From assembly GCA_050298055.1 (NCBI GenBank), contig JBNKTL010000012.1:1-64000 (forward strand): 64,000 nucleotides of DNA, given 5' to 3'. The translations under genes and the position numbers were made by a program. Positions 3-7,701 of the stretch are shown in pieces (position 1 is the first letter of the stretch; each line of letters begins with the position of its first letter). The notes under the pieces were generated by a model. That model worked only from the letters and a program-made list of their open reading frames with translations, was not told the DNA's origin and did no database searches. This DNA is from Spirochaetota bacterium (GTDB lineage Bacteria > Spirochaetota > UBA4802 > UBA5550).

Positions 3-1808
3 GGGAACAGCGCGGTGACAGTTGATTCTTCTGAGGGGATCGTTTTTCGTTCGTGTGTGTTTGATTCGCTGACCGGTACCGGGAGCGGAAAGGCAATTTA
101 TGTTACGGGAAATTCAGAGATAACCGTAACGGATGCGGAATTTAAGAATAATGAAGCAGATGATGGCGGAGCAATATGTGCGGTATCAGGGGCGGTAATC
201 AATATATCTGCATCCGATTTCATCTCTAATAGTGCAAATGATGATGGAGGCGCTCTTTTTATAGATGATAATTCAACGGCAGAAGTGTATGTTAACATTT
301 CCGGGTCCAATTTCATTAATAATAATGCAGGTAGTGGTCTAAGTAATATTGGAGGCGCTCTTTATGCCCATGGATCAAATATCTCAATTACCAATAACTC
401 CCGGTTCGATGGTAACAGCTCCGGCCAGGGGGGGGCGATTTATGCTTACGAAGATACAAACATAACGATAAATGATACGGAATTAACAAATAATAGTACA
501 ACATCAAACGGTGGGGCAATTTTCATAAATAATACACCTGCCGATATCAACAATTCAACCCTGTCAGGAAATTATACAGATTCAGGAGAAGACGGGGGAG
601 CTTTATACATAGAATCTAGTAATGTGAATATTCTCAATTCGAAGTTGCAGAATAACGGGTATACAGGGACCACTACTTATACCCGTTATGGCGGTGCGAT
701 TTATTTATATAGTGGTTCCCTTAACATTAGCGGTGCGGGGAGTGAAATTTCCTCAAATTGTGCCTATGGCGGTGGTGGTGCTATTAATGTTTATGGAGGA
801 ACTTTAACAATTACTGACGCCGCCATCAGCAATAACGGGTCCATTACAGGGGTTACACCTGCAACAAATATCGGAGGCGGGATTTTCTTTGGAGGTGATA
901 ACTTAACTGTTACTGACTCTTCTTTTGATAACAACCAGGCAACCGGTAACGGTGGGGGAATCCATCAGGAAAATACAGGGGATATGACCATTACCGGGTC
1001 AACCTTTTCTTCCAATGAATCCGGAATAACAGGGGGAGGGGGAATTTTCTCATCTACAACAGGCGCGGTAGTTGTTAATGGAACAGACTTTTCTGATAAC
1101 CATACCGATGGGACCGGCGGGGGGGGAGTATATCTCAGTAGCGAAGGAGGCGCAAATTTTAATGCCTGCAGCTTTGTAAGTAATACTGCCGGAGTTACTG
1201 GATCCAGTGATGGCAGCGGCGGAGCAATATTGATTTTGGAGAATAGCCCAACTACAGTTGTTAATTCTTTTTTTTATGATAACCATGCATATGACTATAC
1301 AGGAAGTACGGGTGTCGGCGGAGCAATTTCTTATCAATCCAGTTCTGCCTCATCATCAAATACATATATAAATCTCGCCTTTTATTCCAATCATGCCTCT
1401 GGTAATAACGGTATTGGGGGGGCTTTCTATTCCATTTATGGAGATCATTCATTTTATAATTCTGTTTTTTACGGTAATACGGCTGATGATACTACTACAA
1501 ATAATATTTCCGCAAACGGTGATGCTGGTGATACATTTGGAATTTATAATTCATTTTATTACGGCGGTGCATATATAGATACGGATCTTGGTTTTACGGG
1601 AGATTCAAGCAACATAACAGGAAATTCCGAATCACCATTTGAGAGCATTAATGATGAAGCCGCCAATTTTCTTTATCCCAATTCATACATTATTGACCTG
1701 GGAGACAGTTCACAGGTCCCAAATGGTATTACCGAAGACCTCGCGGGGAATACGCGTATCGCAGGAAGCGCTGTGGACATCGGGGCCTATGAATGGCAGG
1801 GGGAGTAA
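3..1808 (+). CDS. Pmp-like right-handed beta-helix surface protein with choice-of-anchor-Q-like C-terminus (5'-truncated by window)
   Basis: Many GGAI/GGAL...FxxN repeats; C-terminus DLAGNTRIAGSAVDIGAYEWQGE; frame open from window start; nt 1-77 identical to 2552-2628 of the downstream paralog. Confidence 0.85.
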   Translation, partial: GNSAVTVDSSEGIVFRSCVFDSLTGTGSGKAIYVTGNSEITVTDAEFKNNEADDGGAICAVSGAVINISASDFISNSANDDGGALFIDDNSTAEVYVNISGSNFINNNAGSGLSNIGGALYAHGSNISITNNSRFDGNSSGQGGAIYAYEDTNITINDTELTNNSTTSNGGAIFINNTPADINNSTLSGNYTDSGEDGGALYIESSNVNILNSKLQNNGYTGTTTYTRYGGAIYLYSGSLNISGAGSEISSNCAYGGGGAINVYGGTLTITDAAISNNGSITGVTPATNIGGGIFFGGDNLTVTDSSFDNNQATGNGGGIHQENTGDMTITGSTFSSNESGITGGGGIFSSTTGAVVVNGTDFSDNHTDGTGGGGVYLSSEGGANFNACSFVSNTAGVTGSSDGSGGAILILENSPTTVVNSFFYDNHAYDYTGSTGVGGAISYQSSSASSSNTYINLAFYSNHASGNNGIGGAFYSIYGDHSFYNSVFYGNTADDTTTNNISANGDAGDTFGIYNSFYYGGAYIDTDLGFTGDSSNITGNSESPFESINDEAANFLYPNSYIIDLGDSSQVPNGITEDLAGNTRIAGSAVDIGAYEWQGE

Positions 1809-2061
1809 GTTTTGAATGTTAAATGTTGAATTTTTAATTTTAAATTAAAGAGAGGAAGAAAAGTATTGAACCGCAAAGGCGCTAAGGGCGCAAAGGAAGA
1901 GTTTTTATAATGTTGAGTTTTAAATGTTGAATGTTAAATTAAAGAAACTGTTTTTAACCGTATAACTCATCATTCAAAATTATCCTAAACTTCGTGTGCT
2001 TCGTGATCTTCGTGGTGATAAAAATCTTAAAAACTTTGCGCCCTTTGCGTCTTTGCGGTTC
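1809..2061. repeat. Nested low-complexity inverted repeats (heptamer AATGTTG-type and 9-mer CGCAAAGG-type)
   Basis: Heptamer runs at 1809-1845 and 1908-1940 with an inverse copy near 1965-1981; aaccgcaaaggcgctaagggcgcaaag (1869-1895) inverted at ~2034-2061. Confidence 0.75.
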
Positions 2062-2112
2062 AAATTGAAGGGTCCCGGACCTCGGAGGAAGTGTAAGATA
2101 AGGAGAAGTAAA

Positions 2113-3882
2113 ATGAAGAAGCTCATTCCGGTCATCATCCTGTTTCTTTTAAACCTGTCCTGTTCGGACATTATAAACGGCATGTTTGAAGACATGCCCG
2201 ATATAGTCCCTGTCTGCGTTGATAAAGACACGTTAAGCAGCGGCGACGGGCGCGGGTGGGTGAATGCCGTTCAGAGTATCAACGAGGCCCTTGCCCTGGT
2301 AAAGGAGGGGGGGGAGATATGGATAAAGTCGGGGACTTGCGACATTGGCGCAGTTATAGAGATCGGCGGGAGCGTGGAAAATTTTTCCATCTACGGGGGC
2401 TTTGCCGGTACCGAGAGCAGGAGAGAGCAGAGGGACGTATCCGCCAATGAGACAATTTTAAATTCTTCGTCAGGGAACGGGATCATCTCCCTTTCAGGGG
2501 CCCGTTCAGTCACCCTTGATGGTTTTACCTTCAGGGCTTCCGCAAGCCTCGGCGGGAACAGCGCGGTGACAGTTGATTCTTCTGAGGGGATCGTTTTTCG
2601 TTCGTGTGTGTTTGATTCGCTGACCGGTTCCGGGGATGGAACGGCCGTAAGGAGTTCCGGGTCGGGGGTTGGTATTGAAGAGTGTAATTTCAGTAATAAT
2701 TATGCAGATGGCAATGGAGGCGCTCTTTATGGAAACGGGTCAACTATCTCAATCTCCGGTCATTCACTTTTCGATATCAATAGCGCTTATAGAGGTGGAG
2801 CAATCTATCTTGAAGGAAATTCAGAGATAAGCATTACGGATACGGATTTGACAAATAATAATTCAGAATTAGCATATAATTCAGGAAGCAATGGTGGGGC
2901 AATTTACTTAGAAAATACCACAGCTGTTATCAATAATTCCAAACTTATCGGTAATTATTCAGAAGATAATGCTAATGGGGGCGCATTATATATAGATAAC
3001 AATACCGGCGAGGAAGTAAATATTATAAACTCAGAGTTTAAGTATAACGGGTATCTGGATTCAACTTCCAAAACTTTTAATGGCGGTGCAATATATCTTT
3101 TAAATGGTTCCCTGAATATCAGCGGTGCGGGGAGTGATATTTCTTCAAATTGTACTAACAATGGTGCAGGCGGAGGAATTTATATTTATGGTGGAAATTT
3201 ATCAATAAGTAATGCCAGCATCAGCAATAACGGGTTCATTGGAGTGGGAGCGCCAGAAACACAATCCGGAGGAGGGATTTATTTCAGGGGTAGCAGCTTG
3301 ACTATTGATAGGGTTAAATTTATTAATAACCAGGCAGAAGATAATGGTGGTGGTATATTCATAAATCCTGTCACTGCAGATATCAATATTAATAACAGCC
3401 TGTTTCGAAGCAATAGAGCAATTAATAACGATGGCGGCGCGTTATATCTTAATAATGGTGCCTTGAACTTTGCAAATGTGACATTTTATGATAATTCTGC
3501 TAATAACAATGGTGGCGCTATTTATAGTAATATTGGTGCAACAATATATAATTCGGTTTTTTATGGCAATTCCGGTTCTGCTGGTAATAATATTTATGTT
3601 AATAACGGAACAGTGAGTATTTCTTACTGTTTTTATTACGGAGGTCTTGATACTGGAGGGTCTGGGATTATTGATACTTCAGGGGATGGGAATATTAATG
3701 ATAGCACAAATCCCTTTATGAGCACTACATACGGAGCCGACGATTTCCTCTATCCTGATGTCATTATTATCGATGCGGGATATAACGATGCTATTTCAGA
3801 CTATTTAACTGACCTCGCGGGGAATACGCGTATCATAAACGGCACTGTGGACATAGGGGCCTATGAATGGCAGGGTGAGTAA
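2113..3882 (+). CDS. Pmp-like beta-helix lipoprotein with choice-of-anchor-Q-like C-terminus
   Basis: AGGAG SD at 2101, ATG 2113, signal MKKLIPVIILFLLNLS-C; GxGWxNA...IYGGFAGTE N-terminal module; GGAIY repeats; ends DLAGNTRIINGTVDIGAYEWQGE. Confidence 0.85.
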   Translation: MKKLIPVIILFLLNLSCSDIINGMFEDMPDIVPVCVDKDTLSSGDGRGWVNAVQSINEALALVKEGGEIWIKSGTCDIGAVIEIGGSVENFSIYGGFAGTESRREQRDVSANETILNSSSGNGIISLSGARSVTLDGFTFRASASLGGNSAVTVDSSEGIVFRSCVFDSLTGSGDGTAVRSSGSGVGIEECNFSNNYADGNGGALYGNGSTISISGHSLFDINSAYRGGAIYLEGNSEISITDTDLTNNNSELAYNSGSNGGAIYLENTTAVINNSKLIGNYSEDNANGGALYIDNNTGEEVNIINSEFKYNGYLDSTSKTFNGGAIYLLNGSLNISGAGSDISSNCTNNGAGGGIYIYGGNLSISNASISNNGFIGVGAPETQSGGGIYFRGSSLTIDRVKFINNQAEDNGGGIFINPVTADININNSLFRSNRAINNDGGALYLNNGALNFANVTFYDNSANNNGGAIYSNIGATIYNSVFYGNSGSAGNNIYVNNGTVSISYCFYYGGLDTGGSGIIDTSGDGNINDSTNPFMSTTYGADDFLYPDVIIIDAGYNDAISDYLTDLAGNTRIINGTVDIGAYEWQGE

Positions 3883-4357
3883 ATGTTGAATGTTGAATTT
3901 TAAATTTTGAATTGAAGAGGGAGAAGAAGATTTGCCACAGAGGCACAGAGGCACGGAGTTCACAGAGAAGAGGGAGTTGGGGTTGAAGAGAAGAGATTTG
4001 GAACCGCTAAGACGCAAAGGACGCGAAGGAAGAGGAAGAAGAGTTATTTCACACAGAAAGTGCAATAGATAATATGCACTTCAGTGGCCAATTTAATAAA
4101 TTATAAAATATGATGGAGTTCCGGGTTATATAAATAGATAGATGCAAAGAGACAGTCAAAAAACCTAAAAAAACCTCTGTGTCTCTGTGGCGTTAAAAGC
4201 CTTTTCGGACCTCGTGTCCTGGCTTTTAAATGCGCATCATCCTGATGCTGTCTGTGGCAAATCTTAAAATCTGTTCATAGTTGTTAATGGAGAAGTTAAA
4301 TGAAAGAAACCGTTTTTGACCGGATAATTCAAAATTCAACATTCAAAATTCAAAATT
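3882..4357. repeat. Nested inverted-repeat complex (heptamer, CACAGAG and CGCAAAG families)
   Basis: Heptamer run 3882-3913 inverted at 4326-4357; aagatttgccacagaggcacagag (3927-3950) inverted at ~4174-4191 plus 4252-4265, interrupted by an insert. Confidence 0.75.
4192..4251 (+). mobile_element. Short two-hairpin inserted element with 7-bp target-site duplication
   Basis: CTGTGGC at 4185-4191 and 4252-4258; removing the insert restores an inverted-repeat arm; stem ttaaaagcc/ggcttttaa encloses ggac-ctcgt-gtcc, followed by gcatca-tcc-tgatgc. Confidence 0.7.
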
Positions 4358-4458
4358 TCTTAAAAAAAGTGTCGTTCATTACACCCGGGGCGATTTTTCT
4401 TGACATAACAGAAAAAAAGTATAGTTTCAGTCTATTCCAAAGACTGAAGGAGGGAGCT

Positions 4459-4779
4459 ATGAGAACACGGTCTGTATTTTCAGCTATAGTTATTTTACTC
4501 TTTTCTTTGACTCTTTTGTCCTGCGATATCTTTGACGGCGGCGGATCCGGCGGGGACGATCCAAGCCCGCCGTCGTCACTGATGGCGGAAAAAACATATA
4601 TCAGTTCGGGGCCTGAATGCGAATACGGCGGCATCCGGATAGACATGGGGTTCGACAACAACGGGAACAACGTCCTGGACGCGGACGAGATCACCAACAC
4701 CGAATACGTCTGCAACGGGGCGAACGGGGAGGATTCCAACTCGCACCTTTGTTGTCTACACGAGCCCCACTCCCAATGA
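4459..4779 (+). CDS. N-terminal lipoprotein fragment of a frameshifted surface protein (continues in 4787-6781 frame)
   Basis: GGAGGGAG SD, ATG 4459, signal ending LLS-C; CEYGGIRIDMGFDNNGNNVLDADEI..YVCNG module; other frame from ~4748 reads FVVYTSPTPNETGVDLDK, a typical Ig (Big_5-like) domain start. Confidence 0.7.
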   Translation: MRTRSVFSAIVILLFSLTLLSCDIFDGGGSGGDDPSPPSSLMAEKTYISSGPECEYGGIRIDMGFDNNGNNVLDADEITNTEYVCNGANGEDSNSHLCCLHEPHSQ

Positions 4780-4786
4780 AACGGGT

Positions 4787-6781
4787 GTGGATCTGGACAA
4801 AACCGTTACCGCGGTTTTTAACACAGAGATGGACGCCGGCACGGTGAACGGGACAACCTTCACCCTCACCGACAGCAGCGGCGCCCCGGTGGCGGGGACG
4901 GTAAGCTGTTCGGGGATCACCGCGGTCTTTCAGCCCGCAGACACCCTGCTCATCGATGAAGAATACACGGTAAGTCTTACCTCATCCATTGAGAACCAGA
5001 GCGGTGTTGCCATGGGCTATGATCACGTGGTCTCCTTCCGGGGCGGCCTTGCTCGGGTGAAATATTATCCCAACGGGGCGGAAAGCGGAACGGCCCCCGT
5101 GGACGGCAGCCTCTACAACAGGGAAGACACGGCCACGGTGGCGGGGAACACCGGGGGGCTTGAAAGAAGCGGCTACCTCTTTACCGGCTGGAACACCGAA
5201 GCGGACGGTTCGGGGAGTACCTATGCTGAAGGGGAGATTGTAGAGATCGTCGATACGAACATTACCCTCTATGCTCTCTGGACCACGGCGTATTCGGTGA
5301 CATATAATGGTAATGGGGCCACGGGGGGTTCTGTTCCGGTGGATGGTAATCTCTATCTCTATGGAGATAATGTAACTGTGCTTGGGAACCCCGGGGGGCT
5401 TGAGCGAAGCGGATACCTCTTCAGCGGTTGGAACACCGAGGCGGACGGTTCGGGGACTACATACGGTGAAGGGGACACGGTTGCTATCTCCGGTTCGAAT
5501 GTTATACTCTATGCACTCTGGACAACGGTGTATTCGGTGACATATGACGGCAACGGGGCCACGGGGGGTACTGTTCCGGTGGATGGGAATCTCTATTTAT
5601 ACGGAGAATCTGCAACTGTGCTTGGGAACATAGGAAGCCTTATAAATGGAGAGCTGTATTTTGCCGGTTGGAACACCGAAGCAGACGGTTCGGGAACTGG
5701 TTATGGTACAGGTGACACCTTGGAGATATCCAATGCGGACGTCACCCTCTATGCTCTCTGGACGGTTGATCCCTTTGTTGCAGCCGATACCCCCGGCGAT
5801 ATAGCGCCAATAAATATAGGTTCAGAGACAGTAAACATGATCTACGCCAACAACCAAACAGGCATTACCTTTCCTTTTTCTCCATCAAGTTGGACATCTT
5901 CTGTGGACAATATTCCGGCAACTCTGACGAGAAAGTTCTTTATGAGCGATACCCAGGTAACCAATGCACTTATGGCTGAAGTACTGCAGTGGGCCTATGA
6001 TAATGGCAAATTCAGTACCACCTTAGGCGACCACAACGGCCTTGAAAGCAGAACGGTAAAATATGGTGGGCAAGAGCTTCTTGATCTTGATGATACAAAT
6101 ATAAAGATCAATTATTCATCCGGAAATTTCACGTTAGATTCCGGTTATGAGGACCACCCGGTGGTCTGTGTGACCTGGTACGGGGCCATTATGTTCTGCA
6201 ATTGGCTTACGGAGATGAGAGATGGGAATACTGATAATGTAGTATATACCGGCATAGACACGGACTGGGACCATACTGAGACCGTCGAAAACGCGGACAG
6301 GTCCGGTTACCGTCTGCCTTCAAGCCAGGAGTGGGAGTATGCTGCCCGGTATATTGGCACTACCGCGCCCACAGGGGGTGATCTTGCCACTGAATATATT
6401 GCACAGAGTTATAATTCGGGGGATGTGACCCTTACAGCGGGGTATTACTGGACCCCGGCTGATTATGCCAGCGGAGCGATCAGGGACTATACGAACGATA
6501 CAGAGACCCGGGCCGTGGGCTGGTATTCAGGAGACCCTGACATGGGCGGCAGTGACACATTGATGCCGGTGGCGCAAAAGACCGCTAACCAGCTTGGCCT
6601 CTATGACATGAGTGGCAATGTGTGGGAGTGGTGTTTCACTGTGATCGCGGATGGGCACGTGTTCAGGGGTGGCAGTTGGAGCGATACTGCTGACTACCTG
6701 CAGGTTGGCTACTGGAGCTTTTACTCCCCGAACGACGGGTTCGACATTATAGGCTTCCGATTTGCGAGGTCGGCTCCTTGA
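4787..6781 (+). CDS. Ig-like domain + 3 Listeria-Bacteroides repeats + FGE-sulfatase/C-type-lectin domain protein; putative DGR target
   Basis: Big_5-like domain; three GYLFxGWNTEADGSG..TLYALW repeats; YRLPSSQEWEYAAR, NQLGLYDMSGNVWEWC, RGGSW and IGFRFAR motifs. Confidence 0.85.
   Translation: MDLDKTVTAVFNTEMDAGTVNGTTFTLTDSSGAPVAGTVSCSGITAVFQPADTLLIDEEYTVSLTSSIENQSGVAMGYDHVVSFRGGLARVKYYPNGAESGTAPVDGSLYNREDTATVAGNTGGLERSGYLFTGWNTEADGSGSTYAEGEIVEIVDTNITLYALWTTAYSVTYNGNGATGGSVPVDGNLYLYGDNVTVLGNPGGLERSGYLFSGWNTEADGSGTTYGEGDTVAISGSNVILYALWTTVYSVTYDGNGATGGTVPVDGNLYLYGESATVLGNIGSLINGELYFAGWNTEADGSGTGYGTGDTLEISNADVTLYALWTVDPFVAADTPGDIAPINIGSETVNMIYANNQTGITFPFSPSSWTSSVDNIPATLTRKFFMSDTQVTNALMAEVLQWAYDNGKFSTTLGDHNGLESRTVKYGGQELLDLDDTNIKINYSSGNFTLDSGYEDHPVVCVTWYGAIMFCNWLTEMRDGNTDNVVYTGIDTDWDHTETVENADRSGYRLPSSQEWEYAARYIGTTAPTGGDLATEYIAQSYNSGDVTLTAGYYWTPADYASGAIRDYTNDTETRAVGWYSGDPDMGGSDTLMPVAQKTANQLGLYDMSGNVWEWCFTVIADGHVFRGGSWSDTADYLQVGYWSFYSPNDGFDIIGFRFARSAP
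5050..5765 (+). repeat. Three ~240-bp intragenic tandem repeats
   Basis: ctctatgc(t/a)ctctggac recurs at 5267, 5507 and 5747 (period 240). Confidence 0.85.
6671..6769 (+). other. Putative DGR variable region (VR)
   Basis: Between GGSW and IGFR, 15 codons at typical variable positions all end in C/T, as expected from A-to-N mutation of AAC/AAT template codons. Confidence 0.65.
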
Positions 6782-6968
6782 CCTCCTGTCACCGCCAACA
6801 ATAAGGCATCCGTGCCTGTAGGACTCAGTAACTTTTTGGCCGATCCCTTTTAGCACCTCCTGTGCGGGGTCGGCATTGGAACATCCTGTTCGGTAGTTTT
6901 TGACTTTTTTTGGTCGAGTGCTTTTTGGACATGCTGTCCGTACTGGACATTAGCTCATCCGTGAGCGT
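6769..6968 (+). repeat. Three tandem structurally conserved two-hairpin inserts
   Basis: Units 6769-6819, 6839-6894 and 6913-6968, each with outer stem + pyrimidine bulge + inner hairpin + 4-nt linker + CATCC(G)TG-loop hairpin + GT. Confidence 0.7.
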
Positions 6969-7044
6969 CATTTTTTACAGGATCTTAAACTTCGTGGTGG
7001 AAAAAAAACTTAAAAGAATTTACCACGAAGAGACCGAAGGAAGA

Positions 7045-7117
7045 CCCCCCTAACCCCCGGAGGGGGGCACAAGAGAGTGCCGGATAAATATCTTACGCCC
7101 CTCAGGGGGACGGGGGG
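7045..7117. repeat. CCCCCTAAnCCCCC..GGGGG REP-like palindrome pair
   Basis: cccccctaacccccggagggggg and cccctcagggggacgggggg; related copy at 7792-7876. Confidence 0.55.
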
Positions 7118-7143
7118 CGAACAGCGAAGGACCTGTGACAAAA

Positions 7144-7701
7144 TCAAAAATAACTCTCCCCGAAACTCTCCCTGTGCACAAACTCTCCCAGCTCCTTCCG
7201 GGGCGGGGCTTTTTTTTCTCCCACCGCGGAGACCCCTACCGGGATGGCTGCCACCACCTCGTAACCTTCGGGGACCGAGAGCATCTCCCTGCATTTATCG
7301 TGATCAAAGAGGCCGGCGATCACCGTCCCCAGGCCAAGTTCATGGGCCCTGAGGCAGAGGTTCTGCACCGCCAGTCCCAGGTCGAACATGAACCACTCGT
7401 TGAACTTTGTGACCGGTTTCCCCTCCCTGCATCCCGAAACGTCCTTCCTGGCGCAGACCATTATCAGGGCGGAGGCGTTTATTGTGCATTTTCGGGCGGG
7501 GTTGGTTTCCGAGTAGGTCTCCGCTATTCTCTCCATCATACTCTTTTCCCGGATAACGATGAATTCCCAGACCTGGGTATTGGCCCATGAAGGTGCCATC
7601 CTGGCGGCCTCAAGGATATCTTTTAGCTGCCCGTCGCTGACAGGGTCATCGGTAAATCTTCTTATAGACCGTCTCTTCTCTATTGCTTCCTGCAGTTCCA
7701 T
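7144..7701 (-). CDS. Nitroreductase family protein
   Basis: RRSIRRF, APSWANTQVWEF, DLGLAVQNLCLRAHELGLGT motifs. Confidence 0.92.
   Translation of the reverse strand: MELQEAIEKRRSIRRFTDDPVSDGQLKDILEAARMAPSWANTQVWEFIVIREKSMMERIAETYSETNPARKCTINASALIMVCARKDVSGCREGKPVTKFNEWFMFDLGLAVQNLCLRAHELGLGTVIAGLFDHDKCREMLSVPEGYEVVAAIPVGVSAVGEKKAPPRKELGEFVHRESFGESYF

Follow-up and report, generated by a model that had tools for sequence, protein, structure and literature searches.

Desulfotalea-1 and Bacillaceae-1 have been catalogued as candidate bacterial RNAs since 2010. Desulfotalea-1 was described by Weinberg et al. in 2010 and listed as a doubtful RNA (PMC2864571), and the available part of that article's text does not mention insertion. 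For Bacillaceae-1, it is the reverse complement that has been proposed to bind CsrA in the sections available of Gardner and Eldai (PMC4333381), while the accessible part of Li et al. (10.64898/2026.09.22.753630) suspects a mobile-element-like expansion of a third motif, TwoAYGGAY, and leaves the matter open. Here, we analysed a 64,000-nucleotide (nt) stretch of a Spirochaetota bacterium genome (hereafter the window; contig C12 of a 4.7-Mb genome in 199 contigs), in which four short units, U1 to U4, share one two-hairpin architecture. On sequence comparison, the family to which they belong is a long-stem spirochaete variant of this catalogued orphan motif class. An initial description made from the letters of the window (the sequence-only reading) had recognised no named family, which was not supported: the units resemble Desulfotalea-1 and Bacillaceae-1, though the Rfam cut-offs are not reached. 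Moreover, the units are real inserted copies of an element that is almost certainly mobile.

Fold, covariation and ends of the units

The four units were found at the places and with the stems first proposed for them, and their shared architecture was confirmed by sequence, folding, a structural descriptor and a covariance model. DNA folding of the plus strand gave z-scores of -4.3, -2.2, -3.9 and -2.5 for U1 to U4, respectively, with the folds that had been described. A two-hairpin descriptor (C-N-TCC-(N)-T-G hairpins plus an outer stem) matched 19 times in the genome, compared with 1, 0 and 1 times in three block shuffles. Two covariance models were built, R1 from 7 units of this genome and R2 from 74 matches. 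Searching the window with R2, whose training sequences included the four window units, returned exactly these four at E-values of 2e-8 or better, the next match having an E-value of 0.07.

The long form of the unit comprises 57 nt. In consensus columns it reads as a G plus 8 bp, a 5-nt mostly-T bulge, 4 bp ending in C, the loop N-TCC-T and the 3' arms, followed by one A, 3 nt, 4 bp, the second loop and a 4-nt tail. The unit consists of two hairpins, each bulged and tipped with C-N-TCC-(N)-T-G, and a single invariant A connects them; the unit starts at the foot of hairpin 1 and stops at the foot of hairpin 2. The limits first proposed were right as to place, but the terminal GT taken as the end was not the end, since a 4-nt tail closes each unit (GCTG, GTAG, GGTA and GTCA in U1 to U4), and the boundaries were slightly corrected (Table 1).

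The claim that the divergent stems covary was borne out. In an alignment that was fitted to the model and consists of related sequences, 95.7% of 1214 cells were paired, versus 64.5% in shuffled controls and 27-38% with slid partners; double changes accounted for 361 cells and were present in 15 of the 17 pairs. An extra pair outside the model links linker position 2 (the base after the A) with the last base of the unit. Of 107 distinct long units, 102 have it (C-G in 77, T-A in 25), as do 25 of 27 short units. This terminal pair places both ends at helix feet, so that they would meet opposite the single A. Stem mismatches were tallied in the 120 of 130 rows that kept at least 7/9, 3/4 and 3/4 pairs; among the 2040 cells, G-T (16) and A-C (18) were equally rare, indicating RNA-type wobble tolerance on neither strand.

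Insertion into genes, T-rich tracts and other repeats

U2 interrupts the end of a gene with an FGE-sulfatase domain, which now ends ARSAP* while its relatives end ARTQ* or ARTK*. The empty allele is provided by a paralogue on contig C9 and by orthologues, which end GFRFARTQ* or TK*. Removal of U2 had been predicted to restore GCG AGG ACT CAG TAA, and the paralogue and orthologues have that end. A gene encoding an IS91-like transposase on contig C31 carries units of 53 and 56 nt, and the copy in a relative carries one of 57 nt; against 17 aligned copies, the boundaries of these insertions are ambiguous by 0-1 nt. In total, this gene was struck four times, in 3 of the 17 copies. In a gammaproteobacterial metH gene, an in-frame insert of 17 residues equals one unit. 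As for U1, deleting it leaves a 25-nt three-unit arm without duplication, as in uninterrupted copies of the host repeat elsewhere in the genome, and contig C8 carries a composite near-identical to U1 plus that repeat. The CTGTGGC copies noticed on either side of U1 do exist and its removal does restore the arm; however, the pair comes from the three-unit host repeat. Empty-site alleles, which had been sought specifically, were thus found for U2, the IS91-like gene, metH and the U1 host arm. Together with the covariation, they confirm that the units are structure-conserved, sequence-divergent, non-autonomous inserted elements.

Unit-free orthologues of the FGE-domain gene already have tandem T-rich segments like those around U3 and U4, and the words actttttg/agtttttg, earlier taken for a target duplication of U3, therefore pre-exist it. 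The AG/AGG duplication assigned to U2 likewise disappeared, since the AG that follows U2 belongs to the unit itself, as its tail. The C9 paralogue has a diverged unit at the place equivalent to U3, and two other lineages have different, nested units in the 3' region of this gene. Units were also found inside other units and immediately behind them. Overall, the units enter genes, T-tracts, other repeats and other units in either orientation, mostly without target duplication and without a fixed target word.

We then compared the junctions across genomes. An uninterrupted match elsewhere was available for 26 of 117 junctions, of which 25 fitted best with zero duplication and one with 1 nt; as 15 of the 26 represent a single host site, there are about six independent kinds, and the unit set had been selected for the terminal pair. 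In 77 contexts, matches across the junction never reached 4 nt, and positions -8 to -1 of these contexts showed no consensus. The variable target duplications of the sequence-only reading are hence host repeats or chance matches, and exact excision restores the hosts. With no insertion-made duplications, its argument for target-primed or reverse transcriptase (RT)-mediated insertion loses its basis; in addition, only 22 of the 64 genomes of the host's family yielded an RT gene. No strong mutual information linked internal bases of the unit to its target in a guide-like manner (best value 0.45 bits, lineage-confounded). Reconstructed targets were rich in hairpins, 37 of 73 having z < -2 compared with 50 of 250 intergenic windows (relatives in this set are not independent), and these hairpin targets are mostly other repeats resembling repetitive extragenic palindromic (REP) sequences. 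Orientation relative to transcription was unbiased (22 versus 30, from crude open reading frame (ORF) calls). The contigs of four sequencing runs contained no join skipping exactly one unit, which says nothing for or against mobility.

Table 1. Features of the window around the four units.
Feature	Position	Strand	Basis or remark
Left arm of U1's host inverted repeat, three tandem 8-9-nt units	3934..3958	+	Sequence; reverse complement compared
Right arm of U1's host inverted repeat, split by U1	4175..4258	+	Arm comparison
U1, long form, 59 nt	4192..4250	+	R2 47.8 bits; within right arm of CTCTGTG-type inverted repeat
Big_5 / Flg_new / FGE-sulfatase-domain gene, last codons split by U2	4787..6781	+	Pfam; paralogue; orthologues
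U2, short form, 53 nt, Desulfotalea-1-like, inside codon AG/G	6769..6821	+	R2 42.9 bits; empty allele
Displaced former gene end (G ACT CAG TAA)	6822..6831	+	Agrees with orthologue ends
U3, long form, 57 nt, in T-rich tract past old stop	6839..6895	+	R2 71.7 bits
U4, long form, 58 nt, in next T-rich segment	6913..6970	+	R2 60.3 bits; unit-free orthologues

Several other features of the window were recorded. At 3884-4360 and 7045-7100, inverted repeats of REP-like character are nested in one another and fall into several types (TTCAACATTC-type, CTCTGTG-type and CCCCTAACCCCC-type), the CTCTGTG type having 45 matches in the genome. An Rfam scan of 3800-7200 gave three chance matches and nothing for the units. 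A DUF7151 ORF and the Big_5/FGE ORF (4300-4787) look like one gene split near 4745, where two extra bases were seen in a diverged contig of one sequencing run. Upstream, at 15-3882, lie two tandem long Chlam_PMP/beta-helix repeat protein genes with the same C-terminal words.

Spread among genomes and possible routes of movement

Further copies in the genome and in relatives had been set beforehand as a test of the family, and they were found. R1 gave 30 matches in this genome at an E-value of 1 or better, and R2 gave 27 at 0.1, of which 25 were below 0.001 (150 of 1151 candidates scored; many of the matches were training members); the family here has about 25 copies. In the host's family, R1 matched in 61 of 64 genomes; scoring 85 candidates in every genome gave copy numbers from 0 to 73. 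One complete genome has 67 copies and another genome (G032) has 82. Of 151 genomes sampled from the phylum, 22 gave matches, the strongest within the same order, and six genomes of one sister family gave none. A pattern scan of GTDB genomes returned at least 121 stretches; most of the 80 listed were titled Spirochaetota or similar, and of the six from other phyla three were unpaired, i.e., chance matches. When 151 genomes were sampled from the class to which a gammaproteobacterial bin belongs, R2 detected the short form in 24. In viral contigs, the long-form pattern had no match and the short-form pattern matched four stretches, three of them identical in sequence. At L335, L337, L340 and L345, units often lie amid small genes that resemble toxin-antitoxin and nucleotidyltransferase/HEPN genes (labels given by eye from ORF starts).

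For the movement of the units, we lean towards a DNA route, which as a whole we hold at somewhat less than an even chance: a nick-and-join enzyme of the HUH type, acting in trans, would move the element as folded single-stranded DNA. One strand would fold into a nicked dumbbell, its 5' and 3' ends meeting across from the bulged A, and an enzyme encoded elsewhere would recognise this shape and join the element to single-stranded or hairpin DNA that lies exposed. The likeliest class would be an HUH (Y1, RAYT-like) nuclease, known for folded single-stranded repeats without duplication. We prefer this route because ends without duplication, recognition by shape and hairpin targets mark that chemistry, and HUH enzymes are described in the available part of PMC8266576 as recognising folded single strands with bulges.

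The search for the mover, and some details of the junctions, weigh against this route. Clustering of the ORFs around 93 unit loci revealed no recurring enzyme, no unit lay alongside the Y1 genes of this genome (10 of 11 matches inspected), and 14 stretches between inverted unit pairs contained no mover gene. One complete genome with 18 units (G011) had no Y1_Tnp match at an E-value of 1e-5. IS200/IS605 elements show a leading/lagging bias, unlike the units, whose replichore distribution is even (34 of 67), and no fixed CT or tetranucleotide was found at the junctions. The ends are also not always exact: 1-base matches across junctions exceed chance (32 versus 20 in shuffled sequence), a G precedes 21 of 27 short units, the junctions of two integrase-gene insertions differ by one base (the preceding G is apparently an added base in just one of them), and the fourth insertion in the IS91-like gene, in another relative, lost some target bases. 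Furthermore, many copies probably spread as passengers of host repeats instead of by jumps of their own, and the strict CsrA-type loop across phyla suits an RNA-level constraint at least as well.

No co-occurring RT or HUH/RAYT enzyme, which the sequence-only reading had proposed looking for, was tied to the units by neighbourhood. Y1_Tnp was found in 59 of the 64 family genomes, and its presence is uninformative as it is near-universal. RT genes are patchy (RVT_1 in only 22 of the 64, and not found in many unit-rich genomes), and a group II intron or other RT was rejected as the mover. This genome has two near-identical group II intron copies with an RT (L001 and L002, on C4 and C45 of G000), each directly after a hairpin and T-run, which we take to be the usual position of class C introns. 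The IS91-like Y2 transposase family (L003:926-2285, on C31) is about 420 aa long, occurs in 39 of the 64 genomes and has a conserved downstream region; on two further contigs (C23 and C57), units lie near the IS91-like 3' end beside remnants of that region. As the mover it was rejected, with no match in 12 of the 33 genomes having at least 15 units (two of them complete) and a rho of 0.11.

The minus strand brings in an alternative at the RNA level. Its predicted folds carry a GGA in the hairpin loop, the feature of CsrA-binding RNAs: one intact loop in U1, two in U2 and two in U3, reading CAGGAUG or CAYGGAUG; the lowest-energy minus-strand RNA fold of U4 departs from this form. On the favoured DNA route, too, the loop sequence would be read by a protein, the opposite strand presenting a CsrA-type GGA loop as RNA, and transcribed copies may also bind CsrA. 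The alternative is that CsrA binds and protects a transcript of the GGA-loop strand, which a reverse transcriptase acting in trans copies into DNA at nicks; we consider this rather unlikely. The loops themselves speak for it, as do the CsrA-motif match of Bacillaceae-1 read in reverse complement (PMC4333381, consulted part), the two intron RT copies and the occurrence of csrA in 112 of 121 genomes from the order. However, csrA is near-universal, which makes its presence uninformative, and it also occurs where units were not found; RVT_1 was not found in G032 (82 units), G035 (66), G040 (47) and G047 (44), although drafts can miss repeats; and neither a wobble bias on either strand, nor target duplication, nor a transcription strand bias was seen. 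If, on the other hand, the units were kept mainly as functional CsrA sponges or mRNA-control RNAs and their dispersal were incidental, the published proposals for Bacillaceae-1 and TwoAYGGAY and a two-loop spacing suited to the CsrA dimer (PMC4333381, in the part available) would fit; copies that break genes, nesting that destroys loops, a range from 0 to more than 70 copies per genome and the occurrence of both orientations make this highly improbable.

The failure to find a cognate gene by unit loci, Y1 neighbourhoods or inverted pairs would also be explained if no dedicated enzyme existed and folded single-stranded copies were captured at breaks or stalled forks by repair and ligation, with template switching keeping the arms perfect. 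Targets rich in hairpins and occasional irregular 1-nt junctions agree with this, as do nearest neighbours differing at 1-4 positions, among which 58 edges showed 15 compensatory doubles versus 45 singles where a rough estimate expects about one double. Such capture leaves the invariant loops, single A and terminal pair across phyla unexplained, and we regard it as unlikely.

Two integron-integrase-like genes in different gammaproteobacterial genomes (L326:1500-1553 and L329:118-171) have both been interrupted by a short unit, which sits at one and the same codon directly ahead of the TTxIYTH motif's tyrosine, presumably the catalytic residue; the flanks differ, so that the site could be a hot spot or the insertion could be old and shared. 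A tyrosine recombinase of this kind might act on the folded strand as on attC, the unit being an empty cassette. The two interrupted integrase genes speak for this, and attC sites are shape-read, sequence-tolerant single-strand sites with extrahelical bases, the smallest of them close in size to the unit. The absence of RYYYAAC/GTTRRRY cores and of a fixed target word, two terminal loops instead of one long hairpin, and dispersed copies without arrays beside an integrase make the recombinase very unlikely.

Comparison with described elements

Several known kinds of element were considered and rejected as the identity of the units. A miniature inverted-repeat transposable element of a DDE transposase does not fit, as the unit ends are not mutually complementary and duplication is zero at 25 of 26 matched junctions. 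IS200/IS605 elements have a fixed 4-5-nt target word 5' of the insertion, and a derivative of them was dismissed for want of a target-word consensus at -8 to -1 in 77 contexts. An end or derivative of the IS91-like element was rejected on the unit-rich genomes without a Y2 transposase match (12 of 33). An integron attC site has its RYYYAAC/GTTRRRY cores on one long hairpin in cassette arrays; in the units, the consensus columns hold no such cores and positions are dispersed. The target hairpin of a diversity-generating retroelement (DGR) after the FGE-type gene was dismissed in view of no template match, a group II intron as the sole RT, and orthologues without units. Elsewhere (L068 and L070), a hairpin and an AAC-rich stretch lie downstream of relatives of the FGE gene; the stretch resembles a DGR template repeat, and none was found in this genome. 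The arrays of UG27 RTs consist of about 150-nt units beside an RT, unlike these units. Double-hairpin elements of Allomyces mitochondria and short dispersed repeats of cyanobacteria are likewise very small, two-hairpin, shape-conserved and mobile by unknown means, with different loops and hosts.

Like the REP, REPIN and BIME repeats served by RAYT, the units are tiny hairpin repeats for which an enzyme in trans could read folded single strands and bulges (PMC8266576, available part). They differ in lacking a GTAG or CGTC tag at the hairpin foot and a CT cleavage word (end and flank tallies), in flanking none of the inspected Y1 genes (10 of 11 matches), and in stems that vary freely while the loops are fixed; moreover, the units parasitise REP-like repeats. 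With TwoAYGGAY (RF01731), as far as its accessible description goes, they share two GGA-type minus-strand loops, variable copy number and association with REP arrays, whereas its hairpins share one basal stem and its length is about three times that of a unit. The units are tandem hairpins without a closing stem, with loops only partly AYGGAY, and the RF01731 gathering score of 43 bits was exceeded in none of five genomes, this genome giving no match at all.

The two closest systems are those named at the outset, and the units work like both and are probably related to them, below the cut-offs for Rfam membership. Desulfotalea-1 has no Rfam model and was compared by eye with the published alignment, in the part that was available. 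Both have a G-started basal helix, a pyrimidine 5' bulge, inner and second hairpins with AUCC(N)U tips, an A-U-U-N linker, identical linker/tail couples (AUUG..GGCA and AUUC..AGCA), high copy number per genome and longer inserts within the first loop. The short basal helix of Desulfotalea-1 is present in U2, while U1, U3 and U4 have a 9-bp helix, and the host here is a spirochaete. R2 scored one published Desulfotalea-1 member weakly (17.3 bits, E-value 0.0098). Bacillaceae-1 (RF01690) has, in the same order, a helix with an asymmetric internal loop, a CGUCCUG tip, a short linker and a second hairpin with a CaUCCUG tip, and the units have its two tandem UCCU-tipped hairpins, the first with an internal loop; this loop is 7+3 there and 5+0 in the units. 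The RF01690 gathering score of 35 bits was not reached (best 21.1 in this genome, 27.3 and 33.9 in relatives), and the window units gave no match at an E-value of 10. In the other direction, the two top-scoring RF01690 matches in a Bacillaceae genome were recovered by R2, with 32.9 and 24.2 bits. That genome (G256; L311 and L315) has 100 RF01690 matches, 40 of them above the cut-off, and Bacillaceae-1 behaves there as a high-copy repeat.

We found no paper showing insertion of a Desulfotalea-1 or Bacillaceae-1 unit, and the supplements of the 2010 paper may comment on repeat-like behaviour. To these motifs the present family adds direct insertion evidence, exact ends and a structural end rule (the terminal pair and the single A). 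Its insertions also illustrate what such elements do to genes, altering their ends, entering an essential one without shifting its frame and disrupting those for transposases and integrases, and the family turns the spread of the smallest hairpin repeats into a defined biochemical question with a 57-nt substrate. It is conceivable, though doubtful, that Desulfotalea-1, Bacillaceae-1 and the spirochaete units form one cross-phylum superfamily of 50-60-nt mobile DNAs misfiled as small RNAs and moved by an undescribed chemistry, in which an enzyme so far not associated with mobility would join a nicked dumbbell, its ends opposite the bulged A, to single-stranded DNA, needing no target word and leaving no duplication, each jump bringing a pair of CsrA sites or disabling the enzyme gene of another mobile element.

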